Below are positions 2,762 to 12,821 of a stretch of DNA of 64,000 bases, piece by piece. The translations under genes and the position numbers were made by a program. Below the pieces are notes generated by a model. That model did not search any database and was not told the DNA's origin. It saw only the letters and a list, made by a program, of their open reading frames with translations. How positions within the stretch are numbered: the first letter of the stretch is position 1; each line of letters opens with the position of its first letter. The DNA is from Thermoanaerobaculia bacterium (GTDB lineage: Bacteria; Acidobacteriota; Thermoanaerobaculia; Multivoradales; JAIOJS01). The stretch covers positions 372,212-436,211 of the forward strand of contig CAWJWP010000035.1 of the NCBI GenBank assembly GCA_963846495.1, in the 5' to 3' direction.

Positions 2762-4141
2762 GTGGCCAGCTGTCCGAAGTGCGGGTTCGAGATCGATGGT
2801 ACTGCCGTCGACTGCCCGGCGTGCGGCATCGTCATCGGCAAGTTTCGTCCGGCGCCCGCGCGGCCCACCGCCAGCCACAGCCACTCGCCCAGCGCCGTCC
2901 CGCCGCAAAGCACTACCTCGCCTTCGGCGAGCGACGCGAGCCCGGCACCACCGTTCGCGCCAAGGCTGACCGCCACCCAAACGGCGGCGGCGAGCGCGCC
3001 GCTGAGCACGAGAGCTCCGGCTGGCTCGCAGCCACGCCGAGCGCGGCTGTCCGCGATCCTTGCTGCGGCCGTGGCAGCTCTGGCCATCGCCGGCGTCATC
3101 GCTTGGTTGGTCCTCCGCCCACCAAGCGCCCGTGAGGTCGAAGCTCTCGCCAGGGCATCGACGGTGTCCTTGCGCTGCGCCGACGGCGTCGCGGGCAGCG
3201 GCTTCTTCATCACGCCCACGCGACTGGTCACCAACGCTTACTCGCGCTGTGAGAGCCAGGCTGTCGAGGTGGTGCTCGCGAACGGCCAGCGGCTCGTTGG
3301 TCAGACAGTTGAGGTCGACTGGAGGCTCGACCTCGCGCTGGTGAGCGTGCCGGACGCGCAGGCCGAGCCGCTCGAGCTCGGCGACGCCGCCAGCGTGCGG
3401 CGCGGCGACGCCGTGTACGTCTTCGGCCGCCCCGACTACGTCGCGGGCAACCTCGCGCAGACGCGGATCAGCAACGAGGAGTACCCCTTCCACGGCATCC
3501 CCTACCTGCAGATCGACAGCATGGTCAATCCCGACAACACCGGCGGGCCGCTGCTTGATGAGCGCGGGCTGGTCGTCGGCATCGTGACGACGACGGCGGG
3601 TGACGCACCGAATCTCCGTCTCGCGCTGCCCGTGAACAGCCTCATCACCCGCCACGACGGATGGGCGCAGCAGACGGTCACCTCGGTGGACGACGAGACC
3701 TGGGCGCGGCGCCTTCGCGGTGCCGAAGCGGAGGATCGCGCCGAGGTGAACAAGCTCGTGGCGAGCACGTGGGCCCCGCTGGAATCTGCCGTCGTCCGCA
3801 ATGGAAGCACTCTCGAGCTCTTGATGCTCCGCAGCGGCCAACAGCGTCCACCGGACGGCAATGGGCGGATGAATTTCACGATCACCCACGAGGTCGGACC
3901 GGTGTGCCGGACGTGGGGCACCGGCAGCTGGCAGCCGATCGCCGAGATTGGTCTTCCTTGGTTGGATCCGTCGACCAGCGCCTGGCTGGCCAGCCACAAT
4001 CCGGACCATCCGCTATGGGCTGCCGTGTACCGCATCCGGCTCGAGGGCTGTCCGCCGGCCTACCAGCTGGCCGGGCTCGAGATCTATCCCGCCGGCGACG
4101 TGTTCGGCGTGCGCATCGAGCTGGAGAAGTCGATGCGCTGA
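2762..4141 (+). CDS. Membrane-anchored Zn-ribbon protein with a trypsin-like (S1C-fold) domain lacking the canonical His and Ser
   Basis: The N-terminus has CPKCG...CPACG (two CxxC), followed by a Pro/Ala/Ser-rich linker and a TM helix (LSAILAAAVAALAIAGVIAWLVL). A Trypsin_2-like core follows: GSGFFITPTRLVTNAYS (His position is Tyr), DLALV (Asp kept), DNTGGPLL (GNSGGP Ser position is Thr). Confidence 0.7.
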   Translation: MASCPKCGFEIDGTAVDCPACGIVIGKFRPAPARPTASHSHSPSAVPPQSTTSPSASDASPAPPFAPRLTATQTAAASAPLSTRAPAGSQPRRARLSAILAAAVAALAIAGVIAWLVLRPPSAREVEALARASTVSLRCADGVAGSGFFITPTRLVTNAYSRCESQAVEVVLANGQRLVGQTVEVDWRLDLALVSVPDAQAEPLELGDAASVRRGDAVYVFGRPDYVAGNLAQTRISNEEYPFHGIPYLQIDSMVNPDNTGGPLLDERGLVVGIVTTTAGDAPNLRLALPVNSLITRHDGWAQQTVTSVDDETWARRLRGAEAEDRAEVNKLVASTWAPLESAVVRNGSTLELLMLRSGQQRPPDGNGRMNFTITHEVGPVCRTWGTGSWQPIAEIGLPWLDPSTSAWLASHNPDHPLWAAVYRIRLEGCPPAYQLAGLEIYPAGDVFGVRIELEKSMR

Positions 4142-4171
4142 GGCCGGCGCGTGCCGAGAGCTCGGCTGCCG

Positions 4172-6547
4172 TCAGCGGACCGCCGGCAGCGCGCGCTCCC
4201 ACAGCCCGTCGCCGTGCGCGACGAGGCGCAGCAGCCGCTCCTTGCCGTAGAGCAGGAGCTGCATGCTCTCGACCGCCGGGTAGAGGCCCTCGCTCCACGG
4301 CTGCCAGCTCGCGCCGCCGTCGCGCGAGCGGTAGACGCCCCACTGGTTGGCGACGTAGAGGTCGCCGCTCGCCGCGTCGACGACGAGGTCCGCGTGCGGC
4401 ACGTCGGGCAGCGCGCCTTTCGCCGCGTCGCCGTCGAGCACCCGCCACGCCGGCGCCGCGCCGCCGCTCCACGCGCTGTCGTCGAGCGGCGCCGTCCACA
4501 CGTGCCCCGGGCCGAAGCCGCCGAAGACGAGGAAGAGGCGCTTCCCCGCTTCGTCGAGGACGATCGCCCGCGGCTGCCGGTCGCGCGGCAGCGCGTCGCC
4601 GGTGAGGTCGCGCCAGGTGAAGCCGCCGTCGGGGCTGGCGTAGACGTGCATCGCCTCGTAGCGCGGATCGGTGACGGCGACGACCTTCGCGCTCGATGAC
4701 GGCGACACCGCGAATGCCGCGATCGGGTTGCGGTCCTTGCCGAAGCCGGTCGGCTCCCAGGCCAGCGCCAGCGTGCGCACCGCGGCCTTTTGCGTCGACG
4801 AATGCGTGGGGTCCTCGTCGGCGAGCGCCGTGCGCGTCGAGCGGTAGAGCACGTTGCGCGCTGCGTAGAGCACGTCGCCGGCCGCGGACACTTCGACGGG
4901 CGCGTACCAACCCGTCGTGTCGAGGCAGTTGTCGCTGCTGTGGAACGGATCGACGTCGGGGATGAAGAGGCCGCCACCGTTGTCGTTGTCGGGCGCGTCG
5001 TACTGCTGGTCGCTCGTGACGCCGAGCCGGTAGCGCCCGAGCCGCGCGTTGAAGTGCTGGCCGACGTAGAGCAGCTTCTCGGACTGCGAGTAGGCGATGG
5101 CGCCCGCCTCGTGTCCGTAGCCGGCCACCCAGCTCCAGCCGTCGCCCTTCGTCGACGGCTGGTAGAAGTAGAAGCCCGGCCCCTGGTCCTGCGCCGTGGC
5201 CGCGACGAAGCCCGAGGCCTCGGGCGAGCTCGCCGCGGGGTAAAGCTGCACGACGTCATAGCCCTCGTTCCAAGCCTGGATCGAGCGGCCGCCATCGAGC
5301 GAGCGATAGACGCCTTGGTCGCTCGCGAAGTAGAGCCGCTCGCTCGCTCCGGGCTGTTTCTCCCCCGGATTGCCCGGCACGACGACGATGCGGTGCGTGT
5401 CGGCCATGTAGTAGAGGCCCTTCTCGTCGTTGACGATCGTCCACAGGCCGGCGCCGCTGCCGCCGTAGCTCTTGCCGCCGTCGAAGCTGCGCTGGAGCTG
5501 GGTGCCGACGATCCACAACCGATCGGGGTCGCTCGACGACACCGCTACCGCGTGCGAGTACCAGCCCTGCGAGCTGGCGTAGCTCTGCGTCGTCTGCGTC
5601 GTCCAACGCCGGCCGCCGTCGTCGGAGCGCAGCAGCCAGTTGACGGGATCGACCTTCAGGCTCTGGTACTGGCAGGCGAAAGCGCCCTGGTCGCTGCCGT
5701 ACTGCGCGTTGCCGTAGGCGAAGTGGAGCTGGTTGCCGATCGACGCGTAGACGACCGACGGCTCGCTGGGCGAGCGGCCGAGGACCGCCTTGCCTTCGAA
5801 CTTCGACGGCACGCCGTCGAGGAGCTTCTGCCAGCTCTCGCCGCCGTCCTCGGTGAGGTAGAGCCCATGGCCCGCGCTGGCTGCCGAGCCACAGGCGACG
5901 AGCAGCTCGCCCGGCCGCGCCGGGTTCGGCGACAGGCTGGTCGCCATGATGACGGGCAACGACTGCTCCCACCGGTCGGCGCCGGCCGCCGCGCCGAGAC
6001 GCGTGCGCAGCCGATAGACGCCCTCCGTCGTCGCCGCCCACACGGTGAAGTCCGCCGCCGAGTCGCCGTCCGGCACGATGGCGAGGTCCTGCACGCCGGT
6101 GCGGTCCGCCGGCTGCCAGGCGAGGCTCGGCTGCCAGGACTTGCCGCCGTCGCGGCTGGCCAGGATGCCGATGCCGTAGTTGCCGCGCGTCGTGTGGTCG
6201 TCGAGGCCGATGTCGGCCTGCCGATAGCGGTAGACCTCGCCGGTGCCGGCGAAGATCACGTTCGGGTCGCGTGGGTGGATGGCGATCGCGGCGACGCCGA
6301 GCACGCGGTGCGGTGAGGTGTCGACGCGCTGCCACTCGGCGCCCGGCTCGCGCTTCCAGAGACCGGAGCTCGCCGAGCCGGCGAAGATTCGCTCGGGGTT
6401 CGAGGGATCGACGGCGATGACGAGGGTGCGGGCGCCGAAGTCGTAGGGCCCGCGATGGACCCAGCGGTCGTCGGCGTGGAGCAGCGATGCGAACGCGAAA
6501 CTGACGAGGCCGGCGAGCAAGGCAACGGCGGTGGAGCGCTTGGGCAC
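4172..6547 (-). CDS. Secreted BNR/Asp-box repeat (sialidase/Sortilin-Vps10-like beta-propeller) protein
   Basis: Multiple Asp-box motifs are present (DGGKSWQ, DGGESWQ, DDGGRRWT, FDGGKSYG, LDGGRSIQ, PDGGFTWR, RDGGASWQ). I chose the start at GTG 6547 because an AAGGAGG RBS lies 5 nt upstream and a signal peptide follows (VPKRSTAVALLAGLVSFAFASLLHA). The longer ORF to 6754 is unlikely. Confidence 0.8.
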   Translation of the reverse strand: MPKRSTAVALLAGLVSFAFASLLHADDRWVHRGPYDFGARTLVIAVDPSNPERIFAGSASSGLWKREPGAEWQRVDTSPHRVLGVAAIAIHPRDPNVIFAGTGEVYRYRQADIGLDDHTTRGNYGIGILASRDGGKSWQPSLAWQPADRTGVQDLAIVPDGDSAADFTVWAATTEGVYRLRTRLGAAAGADRWEQSLPVIMATSLSPNPARPGELLVACGSAASAGHGLYLTEDGGESWQKLLDGVPSKFEGKAVLGRSPSEPSVVYASIGNQLHFAYGNAQYGSDQGAFACQYQSLKVDPVNWLLRSDDGGRRWTTQTTQSYASSQGWYSHAVAVSSSDPDRLWIVGTQLQRSFDGGKSYGGSGAGLWTIVNDEKGLYYMADTHRIVVVPGNPGEKQPGASERLYFASDQGVYRSLDGGRSIQAWNEGYDVVQLYPAASSPEASGFVAATAQDQGPGFYFYQPSTKGDGWSWVAGYGHEAGAIAYSQSEKLLYVGQHFNARLGRYRLGVTSDQQYDAPDNDNGGGLFIPDVDPFHSSDNCLDTTGWYAPVEVSAAGDVLYAARNVLYRSTRTALADEDPTHSSTQKAAVRTLALAWEPTGFGKDRNPIAAFAVSPSSSAKVVAVTDPRYEAMHVYASPDGGFTWRDLTGDALPRDRQPRAIVLDEAGKRLFLVFGGFGPGHVWTAPLDDSAWSGGAAPAWRVLDGDAAKGALPDVPHADLVVDAASGDLYVANQWGVYRSRDGGASWQPWSEGLYPAVESMQLLLYGKERLLRLVAHGDGLWERALPAVR

Positions 6548-6754
6548 CGTTCCCTCCTTGCGTGCGGGGCGCACGCACAGTCGAAGGTCGACGCGATGCG
6601 ATGGGTCCGTGACGAGGTGAACGATCATGGCACAGGGTGCGCTCGCCGACGGCAACGTTGTGTTAGGTTGCCCGCCGACGATCGCAGAAACGTGGCTGGT
6701 CGCGCGGGCGGCCTTCCTGAGCGCACCAGCCCTCGCCTGGAGGAGGGACGCCAC

Positions 6755-8518
6755 ATGAGCTCAGACGCACCGGCCCCGCAGCCCGCGCCTCGCCAGCCCA
6801 CCGACCTGGCCGTCGACCGCGCCGCGCTCTACGCGCTGATCCAATCGGCGGTGGACGTCGAGCTGTTCACCATCCCGCTCTACATGACGGCGCTCTACTC
6901 CATCCGCGGCACCTACCCGGCGCCGCTCGACGGCCAGAACGTCTGGCCGGGCATGCGCCCCGATCCCACCTCCACGACGCCGAGCCAACGGGCGTTCAAC
7001 GCCGTCTTCTCGGTCTACGTGCAGGAGATGCTGCACCTACAGCTCGCCGGCAACATCGCCAGCGCGATGGGGTTGCCACCCAGCCTCGACGCGCCGGTCT
7101 ACGACGGCACCTCCGTTCCCTGCATCGGCGACTTGAAGGACATGGCGGGCTTCGAGGACGTGGTGGTGAAGCTGGGGCCGCTCGACCGCAACCAGGTCCG
7201 CCTCTTCCTCGCCATCGAGAACCCGGACTGGGAGAGCTCGTCGGTGAAGCCGGCGGTGCCCTTCGCGGGATGGAGCCCGGGCCAGCCGCTGCCCGAGTTC
7301 GGCACCATCGGTCACCTCTACCAGTGCATCCGCGAGTACATGGACCTCGTCTACGTCGACGGCGGGCTCGTCACCGGCACGCTGTGGGAGAAGGTCTACG
7401 ACCCCGACTCGATCCAGATCGACCTCTTCAACTTCGAGAGCAAGACCGACTACCACCCCGATCAGGAGTACCCGACGTTCGACGTCTTCTTCCCGCTCGG
7501 CATCAGCGCGGCCGACGCGCGCAAGGTCGCCGACACGATGATCGACGCCATCACCGAGCAGGGCGAAGGGCGGGACGCCAGCAAGGGCCCGGACACCGTC
7601 GACCCGCAGTACGTGCCGTCGGAGAAGGGCGTCAGCGACGACTACAACTCCAACGACGGCGCGGTGCGTTTCTTCTGGGATCAGCAGGGACACTGGGAGC
7701 GCTTCCAGCAGGTGGCGCGCTGGCTCCCCGAGATCGAGACCTGGCCGCAATGGTGGGCGAAGCGCGGCGGCATCGTCGCCTGGCAATGGCAGGACCTCGT
7801 CGTGGCGTCGCACACCGCCGACCCGCCGACGCAGACGTTCGCCCAGCAGCGCGCCGACGCGCTCAACGATCCGCGCACCGCCGACCAGGTCAACGACGCG
7901 CTCGACCAGAGCTACAACAGCCTGCTCCAGGCGATCGAGACGAGCTGGAAGAACCCGGCCTGGCGCGACCGCAAGGGAAAGAAGATCGACGCCGACCAGC
8001 TCTTCCCGTACGCCGCCATGCAGGCGCTGTCGACGCGGGTCGCCACCGTGTGGGCGGCCAACGGCGTGCCGCGGTTCAAGAAGGTGCAGACCGGCACGCT
8101 GCCCTTCCCCGACCAGCAACCGCACGCCTGCCAGGGGCTCGACCCCGACCCGAAGAGCGGCGTGTGGGGCGTCAACACCTGCGCCAACGCGGTGATCCAC
8201 ACCTGCTCGCAGGCCAACAGCTGCACGCACCAGGGCGGCTGCGGCTACCCGCACGAGCCCGACGGCTTCCCCAGCGTCAACACCGACAAGGGCGGCGGCG
8301 GCGGGTGCGGCGCGCCGATCCCGGTGGCGCAGGTGTTCAACGGTCCCGCCGGCACCGTCTGGACGTACCAGCCGCAAGGCGGCAAGCAAATCCCGATCGC
8401 GGCCGGCGCCGAGGTCTGGGAGACCGCGTGGCAGCTCTTCCAGGCCATCTACCCGGACGCGGCGCAGGCGACGCCGCCGCCACCCACCAACCTGCGGCTG
8501 GTGCTGCCGCCGAGCTAG
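6755..8518 (+). CDS. Ferritin-like domain protein (PF12902-like) with a C-terminal six-Cys bufferin-like module
   Basis: ATG 6755 is preceded by GGAGGAGGG. The N-terminal four-helix-bundle signatures are VDVELFTIPLYMTALYSI and VQEMLHLQLAGNI (ExxH). The C-terminal segment is ACQG..GVNTCANAVIHTCSQANSCTHQGGCGY..GGGGGCG. No signal peptide is evident. Confidence 0.8.
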   Translation: MSSDAPAPQPAPRQPTDLAVDRAALYALIQSAVDVELFTIPLYMTALYSIRGTYPAPLDGQNVWPGMRPDPTSTTPSQRAFNAVFSVYVQEMLHLQLAGNIASAMGLPPSLDAPVYDGTSVPCIGDLKDMAGFEDVVVKLGPLDRNQVRLFLAIENPDWESSSVKPAVPFAGWSPGQPLPEFGTIGHLYQCIREYMDLVYVDGGLVTGTLWEKVYDPDSIQIDLFNFESKTDYHPDQEYPTFDVFFPLGISAADARKVADTMIDAITEQGEGRDASKGPDTVDPQYVPSEKGVSDDYNSNDGAVRFFWDQQGHWERFQQVARWLPEIETWPQWWAKRGGIVAWQWQDLVVASHTADPPTQTFAQQRADALNDPRTADQVNDALDQSYNSLLQAIETSWKNPAWRDRKGKKIDADQLFPYAAMQALSTRVATVWAANGVPRFKKVQTGTLPFPDQQPHACQGLDPDPKSGVWGVNTCANAVIHTCSQANSCTHQGGCGYPHEPDGFPSVNTDKGGGGGCGAPIPVAQVFNGPAGTVWTYQPQGGKQIPIAAGAEVWETAWQLFQAIYPDAAQATPPPPTNLRLVLPPS

Positions 8519-8538: not shown

Positions 8539-8610
8539 CGAAATCGCTTCGCTGCGCTCGCGATGACGGAAGGAAGTCATCGCGAGGAGCGCAGCGACGA
8601 AGGGATCTCG
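8539..8610. repeat. REP-like imperfect palindromic element (copy 1)
   Basis: The left arm is cgaaatcgcttcgctgcgctcgcgatgac, the loop is ggaaggaa, and the right arm is gtcatcgcgaggagcgcagcgacgaagggatctcg. The right arm recurs at 22917-22989 and 36266-36300. Confidence 0.6.
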
Positions 8611-9543
8611 ACGCCGCCGTATCGCCTCGGCCTGCCCGACCTCGGCTTCGGGGTCGGGCTGCGCGCCGTCCACTTCGACCACATCCTCGCCCACTGGCCG
8701 GCGGTGGACTGGTTCGAGGTCATCTCGGAGAACTACGTCGACTCGCGCGGCCGGCCGCGCTACGTGCTCGACCGCATCGCCGAGCGCTACCCGGTCGTCA
8801 TGCACGGCGTCTCGCTGTCGATCGGCAGCAGCGATCCGCTCGACTTCGAGTACCTGGGCAAGCTCAAGGCGCTGGCGCGCGCCATCCGGCCGGCGTGGGT
8901 CTCCGACCACCTCTGCTGGACCGGCGTGCTCGGCCGCAACACCCACGATCTGCTGCCGATGCCGCTCGACGCCGCCTCGCTGCGCCACGTGGTCGGGCGC
9001 ATCCGCACCGTGCAGGACTTCCTCGAGCGGCCGCTGGTGCTGGAGAACCCCAGCACCTACGTCACCTTCACCGCCGACACCATGGCGGAGTGGGAGTTCC
9101 TCGCCGCGATGGCCGAGGAGGCCGACTGCGGGCTGCTGCTCGACGTCAACAACGTCTACGTGTCGAGCAAGAACCACGGCTTCGACCCCGAAGCGTTCGT
9201 CGCCGCGGTGCCCGCCGAGCGCATCGTGCAATTCCACCTCGCCGGGCACACCAACTGCGGCACTCATCTCATCGATACCCACGACGGCGAGGTGATCGAC
9301 CGCGTCTGGGAGCTCTACCGGCTCGCCTACGGACGCACGCGCGGCGTCTCGACGCTGCTCGAGTGGGACGCGCGGATTCCGCCGTTCGACGTGCTGCACG
9401 CCGAGGTGCTGAAGGCGAAGGCGTGGGCGCGGGGTGACGAGAGCGCGGCGGGAAGAGCGGCGCGCGAGGGCGTCGACACGGCGACGGCGACAGGCTTCGC
9501 GCTTTCCAACCCGCCTCATCTGGTGGCGCCGGAGCTCGAGTGA
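8563..9543 (+). CDS. DUF692-family multinuclear non-heme iron oxidase (MNIO; MbnB/BufB/HvfB-like)
   Basis: It shows strong UPF0276/DUF692 hallmarks (LGFGVGLRAVHF, WFEVISENY, VMHGVSLSIGS, VSDHLCWTG, LVLENPSTY, LLLDVNNVYVS, VQFHLAGH, LLEWD). The start is uncertain: ATG 8563 lies inside the REP element and I saw no obvious start codon between the REP element and the conserved LGFGVG core. Confidence 0.85.
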   Translation: MTEGSHREERSDEGISTPPYRLGLPDLGFGVGLRAVHFDHILAHWPAVDWFEVISENYVDSRGRPRYVLDRIAERYPVVMHGVSLSIGSSDPLDFEYLGKLKALARAIRPAWVSDHLCWTGVLGRNTHDLLPMPLDAASLRHVVGRIRTVQDFLERPLVLENPSTYVTFTADTMAEWEFLAAMAEEADCGLLLDVNNVYVSSKNHGFDPEAFVAAVPAERIVQFHLAGHTNCGTHLIDTHDGEVIDRVWELYRLAYGRTRGVSTLLEWDARIPPFDVLHAEVLKAKAWARGDESAAGRAAREGVDTATATGFALSNPPHLVAPELE

Positions 9544-10433
9544 GCTCGCCGCCGTCTGCTGACTCCGCACGCGCTCGCGGCGCGAGCGCGTGCCCGCCTG
9601 AGCTGGCGCGGCTGCAACGGTGGCTACAAGCGGCGATCGTCGAGCCTGCGGCGGCGGCCAAGACGTCGACCGTGGTGGAGGCCGTGGAGGACGTCGTGAC
9701 GGCGTCGCCCACGCAATCCGCGGCGGAGCGCCTGGCGATCTACCAGCATTCCTACCTGGCGCGGCTCCTGGAGTGCCTGCGTGCCGTCTTTCCGGCGCTG
9801 CGCCACGCCCTCGGCGAGCCGCTCTTCGACCGCTTCGCCGCCGACTACCTCGTCCGCCACCCGCCGGCGAGCTACACGCTGGCGATGCTCGCGGTGCACT
9901 TTCCGCACTACCTGACGTCGACGCGGCCCGACGCCGAGCTGCCCGCCGAAGAGCGCGCGCCGTGGGCCGACTTCCTCGTCGACCTCGCCACCCTCGAGCT
10001 CGCTTTCCAGGAGGTCTACGACGGCGAGGGGCTCGAGGACCAACCGCCGCCGCCCGTCGACGAGGTCGTCGCCCTGCCACCGGCGGAGCTGCTCGCCGTC
10101 CGCTTCGCAGCCGCGCCATCGCTGCGCCTCTTCGCGTTTGGCTCCCCCGTGCACGAGTACCTCACAGCGGCGAGGCGCGGCGAGCATCCGGCGCTACCGC
10201 AGCCCCGGCCGACGGCGCTCGCCGTCGCGCGGCGCGACTGGCGCGTGCGCTTCCACGCGCTCTTCCCGCAGCAGCACGCGCTGCTCTCGGCGCTCGCCTC
10301 CGGCCAAACGCTCGGCGAAGGCGTCGCCGCCGCGTCGCTGCCGCCGTGGGACGCGATCGATCCGGCCGTCCTCCGCGGCTGGCTGCGCGGCTGGATGGAG
10401 GAGCGCTTCTTCGCGCGCGTCGAGCGCGCCTAG
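9540..10433 (+). CDS. DUF2063-family protein (MNIO partner; BufC/HvfC-like putative DNA-binding-domain protein)
   Basis: The GTG start overlaps the DUF692 stop (GTGA). DUF2063-like segments include LQRWLQAAI, AERLAIYQHSYLARLLECLRAVFPAL and FDRFAADYLVRHPP. Confidence 0.8.
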   Translation: MSSPPSADSARARGASACPPELARLQRWLQAAIVEPAAAAKTSTVVEAVEDVVTASPTQSAAERLAIYQHSYLARLLECLRAVFPALRHALGEPLFDRFAADYLVRHPPASYTLAMLAVHFPHYLTSTRPDAELPAEERAPWADFLVDLATLELAFQEVYDGEGLEDQPPPPVDEVVALPPAELLAVRFAAAPSLRLFAFGSPVHEYLTAARRGEHPALPQPRPTALAVARRDWRVRFHALFPQQHALLSALASGQTLGEGVAAASLPPWDAIDPAVLRGWLRGWMEERFFARVERA

Positions 10434-11607
10434 TGGACGACCGCGGGGTGGATCACCGCGCCGCAGCGGCCGCTGCCGGCGATCGGGATGCGCTCGCCCG
10501 GCCGCAGCTGCCGTGCTCCGGGGTGCACCTTCTCGCGCTGCCAGCGCTGCCACTCGGCGAGGTAGTCGCAGGTGCACTGCCGGCCGTTGGCGACGAGCCC
10601 GTCCTTCTGCGCCGGCGTCAGGTCGAAGTCGAGCGTCGAGATGCCGCAGTCGTCGAGGACCGCCGTGCGCTCGAGGTCGGGCGGGTCGGTCGCCAGCGCG
10701 TCGACCTGCACGGCGAGCACCGATTCGATGAGCGCGTCGGAGTACTGCACGAGATTGTCGACCGGCCGGCCCGACGGCGGCAGGCCGGTGTTCTCGAGCA
10801 CGAAGCCGAGCGTCGCCGGATTGGTGCCCTCCTTCGTGTCGAAGGCGTCGATCGGGTAGTTGCGCAGCACGCCGCCGTCGACGTAGACGTCGCTGCCTTG
10901 GCGGATCGACGCGAAGAAGAGCGGGAACGATCCCGACATGCGCGCCGCCAGCGCCACCTCGAACTCGGGGCTCTTCTCCAGCGACAGCTCGCGCGCCTTG
11001 CGGCGGTTGAGGTCGGTGGTGAAGACGTGGAGCTTGCGCATCCCGAGCCGTTCGAGGTCGGCGAAGGTCGAGCGCGGATGTTGCCGGTCTTGGCGGCGAC
11101 GAGGCAGCGCATGAGGCCGAGGTAGTAGTCGCCCTTGTAATAGCCGTAGCGGCGCAGCAGCCGCAGCAGGCCGCCGAAGCGGCCGTCCTCGAACTTCGAG
11201 AAGTCGAGGTTGTAGAGCAGCGACTTCACCTCCGCCGGCGAGTAGCGCAGCGCCACCAGCGTGGCGGTGATGGCTCCTGCCGAGGTGCCGGCGACGTGGT
11301 CGACCTGGGGCAGGATCTCCTGCTGCTCGAGCACTTCGAGCGCGCCGCCGTAGGCGATGCCTTTGACGCCGCCGCCTTCGAAGACGACGTTGGTGAAGGG
11401 GTACTTGACCGGCGCCGGGCACGTCGGCGCCCGCGTCGGGCAGGTTGGCGCTGGCGTGTTCGTCGCGGTGGCCGGCACGCCCTGGGCGACGAGCTTCGCC
11501 ACCGTCGGGCAGGAGATCGGCATGCTCGAGCAGCCGGCCGTTGCGGCCGCAGCGGCGACGGCGACGAGCAGCAGCGGCAGCCGGTGCCCGCGCAAGCGGA
11601 CGCTCAC
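10430..11607 (-). CDS. Patatin-like phospholipase lipoprotein (frameshifted near 11085)
   Basis: It has a signal peptide with a lipobox (LLLVAVAAAAATAGC). Patatin motifs are GGGVKGIAYGG, GTSAG (GxSxG) and, in the downstream frame, YVDGGVLRNYP (DGG). The N-terminal part sits in the frame of ORF 10618..12510 and the C-terminal part in ORF 10430..11422, a net -1 shift around ..AAKTGNI|STFADLERLG... The GTG start overlaps the upstream stop (GTGA). Its stop shares a CTAG with the convergent DUF2063 stop. Confidence 0.75.
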
Positions 11608-12821
11608 TCCTTCGCCGTCTTCTCGGGCATCTTGAGGCCGAGGTAGGTGCCCGAGCTGATGCCCATCAGGCCGAGCATCGTGGCGCTGAACTCCGGCATC
11701 TGGAGGGTGAAGTAGACGACCTTGCAGAAGATGATGCCGAGCACCAGCGTCCAGATGAAGAGCTGGAAGCGGTGGAGGCTGATGCCACGCTCGTCGGAGA
11801 GCACGTCCTTGAGGAAGCCGCGCGTCGTCATCTTGGCAGGCGGCGCCTTGGCTGCCGCCGGCGGCAACGTCGCGGTGACGGTGGCCTCGCCGGTGGCGCC
11901 CGACACCGTGGCGCTCGCCGCGGGTGCGGTGCCCGCCGCCGGAGCCGTGCCCGCCGCCGCCGCCTCGTCCTTGCTCTGGTCGATGAGCGCCGCGCCCAGC
12001 GCCGTGCCCGAGCCGATGCCGAGCAGCGCCAGCACCGAGCCGGTGATGGTGTCGAGCTCGCCGGTGATCATCCAGATGAAGATGTAGGCCGCGACCACCA
12101 GCAGGCCCCAGAAGGCGAGCTGGAACCGCGCCAGGCTGTAGGGCGCCTGCATGCCCTCGGCGACGCTGTCGCCGCGGTCGCGCAGCAGCGGGGTGCGGCT
12201 GGCGAGCACGACGAGCAGCACCAGGGCCACCGCCAAGCCGATGAAATAGGCGTACACCCAGAACCGGGGCAAAATCACCAGCTCCAGCCCTTCGACCGAC
12301 GACGGCCACGACAGCCGTTCGTGCGGCCCGACGCTGAGCGTCACCGTGTCGCCGAACTCCCACGGTTCGGTGAACAGGGTCCGCCAGGCCGTCGCCGACT
12401 GCTCGTCGCGCACCAGGGTGTAACGCAGGCGCCCTTGGGCGAGCTCGCAGGAATCGGGCTGCATCCCCGCGATCGGTACGTCGTTGATGAACAGCGTCAG
12501 GCTGTCGCACTTGGCGCCGGTGCCCTCGAGGTACGGGGTCAGGTGGTCGACGCGGACCGAGACGACGTACCCGAGGGCGATGCGGTTGGGGTTCTCGTCG
12601 TTGGACGTCGCCGCCACGACGCGTGGGACCACCGCCGGCTGGCCGGGCGTAGCAGCAACGGCCGTAACCACCGTCGGTTGGGTGCTTCCCTGCGCCGCGG
12701 TGCCGGCGTTGAGCGGATCGGGCGGCGACTCCTGCGCCGCCGCGACGCGCGGCAGCAACGCGCCACCGAAGATGGCGAGCCCCGAGGCGAAGAGAAGCGC
12801 TGCGGCGGTCTTCCTGCTCAC
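11604..12821 (-). CDS. Membrane protein of unknown function with an internally duplicated S-L-x-R-F-Q-L...W two-helix unit
   Basis: 405-aa ORF with a signal peptide or anchor and a soluble N-terminal domain. It has TM helices, and aa 227-281 resemble aa 346-398 (YSLARFQLAFWGLL...LLGIGSGTALG versus ISLHRFQLFIWTLV...LMGISSGTYLG), separated by an Ala/Thr/Pro linker. Confidence 0.7.
   Translation of the reverse strand: MSRKTAAALLFASGLAIFGGALLPRVAAAQESPPDPLNAGTAAQGSTQPTVVTAVAATPGQPAVVPRVVAATSNDENPNRIALGYVVSVRVDHLTPYLEGTGAKCDSLTLFINDVPIAGMQPDSCELAQGRLRYTLVRDEQSATAWRTLFTEPWEFGDTVTLSVGPHERLSWPSSVEGLELVILPRFWVYAYFIGLAVALVLLVVLASRTPLLRDRGDSVAEGMQAPYSLARFQLAFWGLLVVAAYIFIWMITGELDTITGSVLALLGIGSGTALGAALIDQSKDEAAAAGTAPAAGTAPAASATVSGATGEATVTATLPPAAAKAPPAKMTTRGFLKDVLSDERGISLHRFQLFIWTLVLGIIFCKVVYFTLQMPEFSATMLGLMGISSGTYLGLKMPEKTAKE

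Follow-up and report, generated by a model that had tools for sequence, protein, structure and literature searches.

The closest described relatives of the system reported here are the bufferin operons, in which the MNIO enzyme BufB and its partner BufC convert central cysteines of BufA1 and BufA2 into copper-binding 5-thiooxazoles (PMC11626156). In Buf2, mass shifts of -4 Da (5-thiooxazoles) are found on the four central cysteines, the outer pair is probably joined in a disulfide, and modification does not need the bufferin signal peptide (PMC11626156). Pairs of an MNIO and a PME1 partner install 5-thiooxazoles in other precursors as well, with FonB preferring Cys-Gly dyads (PMC13097082), and the characterised BufB and PME1 pairs all modify the cysteine-rich product of the gene directly upstream (PMC11626156, PMC13097082). 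Published surveys have sought substrates of these pairs among small cysteine-rich peptides (PMC11626156, PMC13097082), and the first bufferin study was restricted to peptides with a Sec signal peptide (PMC11626156). Here we analyse a 64,000-nt stretch of DNA from a Thermoanaerobaculia bacterium (GCA_963846495.1, contig CAWJWP010000035.1, positions 372,212-436,211, forward strand), which we call the window. It contains a three-gene cassette in which a 587-residue ferritin-like protein without signal peptide (gene A) precedes a BufB-type MNIO (gene B) and a DUF2063 partner (gene C). Because of its size and its lack of a signal peptide, gene A lies outside the filters of the earlier surveys. From genomic context and homology, the Cys/His-rich module at its C-terminus is very probably a cytoplasmic BufA2-like core embedded in a larger protein and a substrate of the MNIO.

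A ferritin-like protein with a C-terminal cysteine module

All three genes of the cassette are on the forward strand. Gene A occupies positions 6755-8518, and a Shine-Dalgarno-like GGAGGAGGG can be read at 6739-6747, 7 nt before its ATG. Its product begins with a ferritin-like domain (aa 29-319, 6839-7711) that matches PF12902 with 103.2 bits against a gathering score of 22.3. A helical extension and linker follow (aa 320-456, 7712-8122) and lead into the core of the module (aa 457-518, 8123-8308), the predicted MNIO target, and its second half (aa 519-587, 8309-8515), an equivalent of which is present in the stand-alone modules described below. Gene B (8563-9543) starts 44 nt 3' of gene A, and hence of the end of the module. 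It belongs to DUF692 (PF05114, 358.8 bits) and passes the NCBIfam MNIO_BufB model NF050167, a “bufferin maturase” equivalog, with 355.7 bits against a cut-off of 310, staying below the cut-offs for HvfB (254.7 against 360), ApyH, MbnB and ChrH. Gene C (9540-10433) has a GTG start that shares 4 nt (GTGA) with the MNIO stop codon. It encodes a DUF2063, PME1-type protein (PF09836, 72.2 bits with a cut-off of 27.2; NGO1945_C, 24.1 bits), which scores 50.8 bits with the NCBIfam HvfC equivalog, below its cut-off of 142. The order of the three genes is therefore that of bufA-bufB-bufC in bufferin operons (PMC11626156), with a 587-residue protein at the bufA position. BufA1 and BufA2 hidden Markov models (HMMs), applied to six-frame open reading frames (ORFs) of at least 30 aa, find no separate BufA1- or BufA2-like precursor in the 64-kb window, in which the module is the only bufferin-like sequence. 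The ORFs between and around the three genes are only alternative-frame artefacts of a sequence that is 70% GC.

A sequence-only reading of this locus had proposed a six-cysteine segment near the C-terminus of the ferritin-like protein, and the translation together with the PF12902 match bears this out: positions 8129-8308 (+) encode CQGLDPDPKSGVWGVNTCANAVIHTCSQANSCTHQGGCGYPHEPDGFPSVNTDKGGGGGC, which are residues 459-518 of gene A. The core is laid out as H-A-C459-Q-G ... C476-A ... H-T-C484 ... N-S-C490 ... Q-G-G-C496-G ... G-G-C518. The rest of the protein had been described as almost free of cysteine, and six of its eight cysteines do fall within 62 residues (457-518), with two in the other 525. 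Spacings of x12, x4, x4 and x5 between the motifs were read correctly; the last one, from CGY to the final cysteine, is 19 residues and not 21. The glycine-rich spacer and the tail of roughly 70 residues are also there, as a run of five glycines and a tail of 69 aa.

We assessed conservation in alignments of 29 and 103 homologues, reaching down to about 36% identity. In the larger alignment every sequence has C459, C484, C490, C496 and C518 (103/103), and 97 of the 103 also have C476; H457, Q460, H482, N488, G494-G495, G497 and G516-G517 are invariant too, and Q493 is kept in at least 90%. The second half of the module combines a G-A-P-I-P-x-A-Q segment, a beta-hairpin, a helix (VWxxAWxxF) and a conserved C-terminus, NLRLVLPPS. 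Here P521, Q526, V554, A558, R581, P585 and P586 are invariant among the 103 sequences, while the tail residues I522 and S587 are invariant in the 29-sequence alignment and kept in at least 90% of the larger one. The core pattern H.CQ...H.C...N.C..GGCG recurs in 76 of 77 gene A-family proteins, from many phyla, that we extracted from 86 loci, most of them the genome loci described below. Residues 459-587 match no Pfam or NCBIfam model, and a sequence search of the Protein Data Bank (PDB) returns no solved structure for the module.

In the ferritin-like body, none of the 103 homologues deviates at the six candidate metal ligands E36, E91-x-x-H94, E155, E271 and H313, which would make a plausible dimetal site. 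In the linker (aa 320-456), a stretch covered by no Pfam model, W343, N371, W398, R428 and W433 are conserved. A search of 5.8 billion protein clusters gives 521 homologues of gene A at E<1e-5, mostly full length at 550-830 aa. A hydrophobic N-terminus is absent from all 103 aligned homologues, which points to a cytoplasmic family. Among solved structures the only relative is 3HL1 (CC_0557), a ferritin-like protein of unknown function from structural genomics; hmmsearch finds it at E 2.4e-22, and it is also the only Foldseek match to the full-length AlphaFold2 (AF2) model (E 7.5e-12). In one full-length homologue of 828 aa (P0021, on a 4.7-Mb genome contig), about 240 additional N-terminal residues, annotated as PF13385 (Laminin_G_3-like), precede the ferritin-like domain and the Cys module.

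Built on 103 sequences, the full-length AF2 model is a confident single body (pLDDT 90.8, pTM 0.93). Its first helix (15-47) comes right at the N-terminus, and the model is helical to residue 434, including high-pLDDT helices at 313-434. The Cys segment at about 450-520 is modelled as coil with pLDDT 68-78, and the beta-hairpin, helix and C-terminal tail that follow return to about 90. Coil of reduced confidence is compatible with an accessible substrate loop. We also modelled the module alone, on a shallow alignment of 19 sequences, and use that model only for the contrast at the C-terminal tail. It has an overall pLDDT of 51, with 30-47 in the Cys segment, 70-83 in the hairpin and helix, and 37 in the last 8 residues. 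The two models suggest that the Cys loop is flexible and that the tail docks on the ferritin-like body, in a contrast that is weakened by the 19-sequence depth of the module-alone alignment.

Distribution of the cassette and relatives of its module

The cassette is widespread. Scanning one genome per species, for 185,579 species, we find relatives of gene A in 346 species-representative genomes, and the synteny figures that follow refer to the best 80 of these 346 matches. Two of the contigs end within 340 bp of the gene, which leaves 78 testable loci. In all 78 (78/80 overall) the gene A homologue is followed directly by an MNIO gene, and the DUF2063 partner is detected in 76 of the 78. The best 80 loci span at least seven phyla, with Acidobacteriota, Alpha-, Beta- and Gammaproteobacteria, Myxococcota, Actinomycetota, Bacteroidota and Planctomycetota; the closest relative among these 80, at 68% identity, is in a Thermoanaerobaculia metagenome-assembled genome (Acidobacteriota). 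Proteobacterial carriers are Caulobacter, Allosphingosinicella, Undibacterium, Massilia, Janthinobacterium, Chromobacterium, Ralstonia, Methylobacter, Dyella, Marinobacterium, Endozoicomonas and Pseudoalteromonas, and the cultured carriers include Caulobacter, Myxococcus, Chromobacterium, Janthinobacterium, Undibacterium, Chitinophaga, Saccharothrix and Pseudoalteromonas. All-against-all clustering of the neighbouring ORFs in 83 loci turns up no further gene that accompanies the cassette, whether for a DoxX protein, a regulator (sigma or anti-sigma factor), a protease or an exporter. Genes A, B and C are a self-contained three-gene cassette. Loss of the cysteines in orthologues that keep the MNIO neighbourhood had been set beforehand as a possible refutation of the proposed link; both the cysteines and the neighbourhood are kept.

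The enzymes of these loci also belong together. The MNIOs of six other fused or split loci pass the BufB cut-off with 346-365 bits. In a neighbour-joining tree of 98 MNIOs, calculated without bootstrap, the 88 module-associated enzymes form one clade that includes none of the ten canonical BufB enzymes, which were taken from BufA2 or BufA1 operons. BufA2-associated enzymes, those of Thiothrix, Legionella and Pseudomonas, are the sister group of this clade. Thirteen leaves of the tree that our script labelled “none” are fused or split loci with overlapping stop-to-stop ORFs.

Split forms separate the module from the ferritin-like protein. We searched 1.84 billion representative proteins with a profile of the C-terminal 137 aa. 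At E<=1e-3 it matches only 252 representatives, and those that we inspected in genomic context all adjoin an MNIO. Besides full-length fusions, the matches include complete module-only proteins of 124-235 aa, as in P0462, which reads MAILELHACQGLNACNGHG...GDCATTNVHTCGGKNNCRGQGGCGY...NENACKGVGGCGSPIPEKQ...VWDNARKAFEARM...KLPPT; several of them retain LPPS or LPPT at the tail. Wherever context is available (L087-L093, L104 and one more contig), the stand-alone module is immediately upstream of the MNIO, and DUF2063 comes after the MNIO where the contig extends far enough. In Kitasatospora sp. NBC_01300 (linear plasmid NZ_CP108409.1, L006, 4279-7937) the order is module (an ORF of 227 aa), MNIO, DUF2063 and, last, a PF12902 ferritin-like protein of 438 aa that lacks the module. 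In L090 (4411-8565), a ferritin-like gene (522 aa) comes first, followed by a stand-alone module (230 aa), the MNIO and DUF2063. In L091-L093, L104 and L087 (L091, 4237-8285; L104, 3450-10544; L087, 1-450) the neighbour is not ferritin-like but a secreted protein of 550-630 aa, seen in L087 as a partial ORF of 149 aa. These secreted proteins have no Pfam match and carry a single CxxCH motif near the C-terminus (CISCH, CMGCH, CIACH or CMSCH); the full-length ones of L091 and L104 are homologous to each other. L104 has two tandem modules, of 172 and 156 aa, and one of these modules, P0490, carries a twin-arginine and lipobox-like signal (RRSFLKTAAATAAVAGAAGC). At the two loci with module-less PF12902 genes that we checked (Azospirillum and Gloeothece), no MNIO is found nearby. 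Thus, the MNIO tracks the Cys module and not the ferritin-like domain. A tblastn search of plasmids with the Kitasatospora stand-alone module found only the query itself.

Two further observations concern these variants. In both module-less loci, L094 (Azospirillum oryzae plasmid, 2897-6008) and L095 (Gloeothece verrucosa PCC 7822 plasmid, 2796-6077), a hypothetical gene of about 660-670 aa directly precedes the PF12902 gene, and the two may be a different conserved pair. The metagenomic protein P0496 (159 aa) starts as a stand-alone module (MELHVCMGLNACKGHG...GSCASPINESRV) and runs on into MNIO sequence, the C-terminal part of the enzyme (HTDLGTHVIDTHDRP...LLEWDD). Either module and MNIO are genuinely fused here, or the protein is an artefact of assembly or of a frameshift.

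The sequence-only reading had likened the segment to the core of DUF2282, the family of BufA1. In HMMER scans against Pfam and NCBIfam, the window module and its fused homologues have no match to BufA2, BufA1 or DUF2282 at E<=10, in a scan where a genuine Legionella DUF2282 protein scores 78 bits (PF10048 gathering score, 22.4). The link to bufferins can therefore not be made in one step. We compared profiles with hhalign, taking BufA2 (NF050166, 80.5 bits) and BufA1/DUF2282 (PF10048, 78 bits) seeds from a Legionella plasmid operon, each expanded to 120 homologues. The window-type module aligns with BufA2 at 59% probability (P 9.2e-5, score 29.2, 28 columns) and with BufA1 at 8.7% (P 0.0038, score 21.7, 17 columns); as a reference, BufA1 and BufA2 align with each other at 75% (P 2.5e-5, 48 columns). 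The BufA2 score of 29.2 exceeds the best of 50 column-shuffled templates (17.1) and the reversed template (18.4), and the BufA1 score is barely above its shuffled maximum of 18.6. Against the single Legionella BufA1 and BufA2 sequences the alignments look plausible, with probabilities of only 3-9%. The stand-alone modules provide the intermediate step. They align with the window-type module at 99.9% (E 3e-31, 100 columns), with BufA2 at 95.4% (E 1.8e-8, 47 columns) and with BufA1 at 29% (P 5.7e-4, 17 columns). In addition, ten of ten stand-alone modules match the NCBIfam BufA2 model and no other, at E 8e-7 to 0.16 and below cut-off, and so does the Kitasatospora module.

In the alignment, the first cysteine of BufA2 (CysI) corresponds to C459, and CysIII, CysIV and CysV to C476, C484 and C490. 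Stand-alone modules also have CysII, the second cysteine of the GLNAC motif, which the window type has lost. The proposed DUF2282 resemblance holds at the motif level, where hhalign pairs GxNxCAxAvxHTCxGS with GMNDCATATaSCAGS; statistically it is weak (8.7-29%), and BufA2 is the better supported relative. The profile-profile comparison that had been proposed as a check thus does find a relationship to bufferin-type cores, with BufA2 (BUF_6/12Cys) closest, and from the hhalign and HMM results together we take the module to be a distant member of the bufferin-core superfamily.

On the Legionella pneumophila plasmid NZ_CP021280.1 (L005, 2637-4897), an MNIO-DUF2063 pair lies between two bufferin genes, one of BufA2 type upstream (82 aa) and one of the DUF2282/BufA1 family downstream (94 aa). 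The product of the latter weakly matches the NCBIfam BufA2 model (E 6e-6), which is consistent with BufA1 and BufA2 being in one superfamily.

Two neighbouring genes of the window lie on the minus strand. The gene divergent from gene A (4172-6754) encodes at most 860 aa, with weak matches to BNR/Asp-box and Sortilin-Vps10-like repeats, and is not kept beside the cassette in other genomes. Beyond gene C, a patatin-like phospholipase gene (10430-12510) is split across two frames, with positions 1-119 of the Pfam Patatin profile in the ORF 10618-12510 and positions 106-190 in the ORF 10430-11422. The split suggests a frameshift (a pseudogene or a sequencing error) near 11,000-11,100.

Possible roles of the module

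Since the module is related to bufferins and always lies beside a bufferin-modifying enzyme pair, the enzymes probably build a metal-binding site in a full-size protein. By analogy with bufferins and captophorins, the MNIO and its DUF2063 (PME1) partner would use O2 to convert several cysteines of the module into 5-thiooxazoles in the cytoplasm. The best target candidates by alignment are C476, C484 and C490, possibly with the Cys-Gly dyads at C496 and C518. The modified cysteines, together with the invariant H457 and H482, would create a metal-binding (probably copper) or redox site, tethered to the ferritin-like and putatively dimetal domain. It might serve copper storage or buffering, or be a second redox centre of the rubrerythrin type. 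With no protease, exporter or signal peptide in the cassette, the product most likely stays intact and modified in the cytoplasm. We thus think it likely, if well short of certain, that the module (aa 457-587) is a signal-peptide-less relative of BufA2, that the adjacent BufB-type MNIO and partner act on it, and that the product remains an intact cytoplasmic protein.

Several points weigh against this. What the sequences show directly is homology, synteny, conservation and the split forms; modification in the gene A family is put forward by analogy, from context alone, and its chemistry, the cysteines it would target and the metal function are predictions. Two defining features of bufferins, the Sec signal peptide and the small size, are absent from gene A. 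The window's own module is the one that escapes the bufferin HMMs; its direct profile-profile link to BufA2 stops at 59%, and the strong link is transitive, through the stand-alone modules. The MNIO tree has no bootstrap and samples ten canonical enzymes, all plasmid-borne, and the genome loci inspected are the best 80 of 346. Finally, an ordinary Zn, Fe or Fe-S site of the rubrerythrin kind would explain an invariant Cys/His cluster beside a ferritin-like domain equally well. Rubrerythrin combines a diiron ferritin-like domain with a C-terminal rubredoxin-like Cys4 centre.

That last point can be developed into a reading in which the Cys/His cluster is never modified and holds ordinary Zn, rubredoxin-like Fe or an Fe-S centre, the MNIO pair having another substrate or another role such as metal loading. 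The invariant H-x-C pairs and Gly-flanked cysteines are typical of metal sites, the domain order is that of rubrerythrin, and the window module is below every bufferin HMM threshold. Such a reading has to account for an MNIO that stays with the module when the ferritin-like gene has moved or been replaced, for the two module-less PF12902 genes without an MNIO neighbour, and for a cassette and window that hold no alternative substrate. The module is moreover homologous to BufA2, a proven MNIO substrate, and characterised BufB and PME1 pairs act on the cysteine-rich product directly upstream (PMC11626156, PMC13097082). We hold an unmodified site to be improbable. Even further down we place a low-complexity Cys/Gly-rich stretch without specific function. 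A short Gly- and Cys-rich segment with a low direct hhalign match to DUF2282 would fit this, but its motifs do not vary over at least seven phyla, where overall identity is 31-38%, its score to BufA2 is above all 50 shuffled controls and the reversed one, and the 252 matches among 1.84 billion proteins, where inspected in context, are all beside an MNIO. Conservation and synteny effectively refute chance.

The remaining alternatives accept the modification and differ in its purpose. In a borosin-like arrangement, the module would be the true core of a ribosomally synthesised and post-translationally modified peptide (RiPP), modified and then cut off and released. The ferritin-like part would then be an oversized leader, or a tailoring enzyme that works in cis on the substrate fused to it. 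The split forms do present the module as a separate small protein in the precursor position, the Kitasatospora ferritin-like gene comes after the partner gene, the usual place of a tailoring enzyme, and the Tat or lipoprotein-type signal of P0490 indicates that some family members are exported. We nevertheless find cleavage improbable, as the fused forms have no signal peptide and the 83 loci show neither a protease nor a transporter that accompanies the cassette. The tail is predicted at pLDDT about 90 with the ferritin-like body and 37 alone (the latter from 19 sequences only), and LPPS/LPPT is kept in several stand-alone modules; both suggest stable docking and not release. A doubtful but possible alternative is that the thiooxazoles are not a free metallophore but a built-in metal or redox cofactor of an enzyme, in which the Cys/His loop with its docked tail would work with the putative dimetal site, as a rubrerythrin-like two-centre oxidoreductase or a cytoplasmic copper handler. 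If so, this would be the first MNIO-made protein-derived cofactor in a large cytoplasmic protein, and the boundary between RiPP biosynthesis and enzyme maturation would be blurred. The reading we favour, an embedded BufA2-like core that is modified in place, would extend thiooxazole chemistry from exported metallophores to an intracellular full-size protein and would give the uncharacterised PF12902 family its first functional handle. With a minimal three-gene system in tractable hosts, one could then also ask how MNIOs recognise substrates that are folded proteins.

Comparison with known systems

MNIO-PME1 systems acting on Cys-rich precursors are already known from bufferins and captophorins; the cytoplasmic form embedded in a PF12902 protein appears to be new. 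In the full texts that we searched, and in the text-form supplements of two survey papers, we found no paper linking MNIO, bufferin or thiooxazole systems to ferritin-like PF12902 proteins. The cytoplasmic PF12902 fusion, its split variants and the module family have no Pfam or NCBIfam model, and we found no mention of them in the literature searched.

The nearest system is that of the BufA2 bufferins (BUF_6/12Cys; Caulobacter vibrioides Buf2, BufB2 and BufC2; NF050166), which likewise have a Cys-rich core encoded immediately upstream of a BufB-type MNIO and DUF2063. BufA2 and the module have a common motif order, CxGxNxC...CAT..xC.GxNxC.G, and the nearest canonical relatives of the window-type MNIO are BufA2-associated enzymes. 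The differences are in the architecture: BufA2 has about 85 aa and a Sec signal, whereas gene A has 587 aa, no Sec signal, and the core placed behind a 450-aa ferritin-like protein. With respect to BufA2, the module has extra invariant GGCG dyads, H-x-C pairs and a conserved 70-aa tail ending in PPS(T), and it is Lys-poor where BufA2 has repeated CKG. At the NF050166 cut-off of 60 bits, the window module has no match at all and the stand-alone forms reach 12-29 bits. With BufA1/DUF2282 (PF10048) the module has in common the motifs CxG[LIV] ... GxNxCA ... [HT][ST]CxG; the spacings differ, the fourth Cys context (W..VP.G.C) is without counterpart, and there is no Pfam match.

Bufferin domains fused to other domains have been described as Buf1|Cytochrom_C|FGE-sulfatase, MerC|Buf1 and MerC|Buf2 (PMC12452194). 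Like gene A, these join a bufferin-type core to a larger metal- or redox-related protein beside an MNIO; they differ from it in that their Buf1 or Buf2 domains are recognisable as such and that they are proteins of the periplasm or the membrane. Oxazolin (HvfA), fontiphorin and the other EGKCG-repeat captophorins (PMC11252979, PMC13097082) also combine an MNIO and PME1 acting on Gly-flanked cysteines. The two invariant GGCG dyads of the module recall the Cys-Gly preference of FonB, but the module has no 5-mer repeats as captophorins do, and captophorin precursors are small or secreted repeat proteins, unlike gene A. On the side of the ferritin-like domain, CC_0557 (3HL1) and other PF12902 proteins (including the VioB, StaD and RebD domain) have the same fold as the N-terminal 320 aa of gene A, with the common motifs ELFTIPLY, QEMLHLQ, IExP and QGEG; proteins of the 3HL1 type lack the Cys module that gene A carries. 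Rubrerythrin is an architectural analogue only, with a four-helix dimetal domain followed by a Cys centre and no sequence relationship to gene A that we could find. What sets gene A apart from it is that its Cys centre is linked to a dedicated pair of Cys-modifying enzymes.

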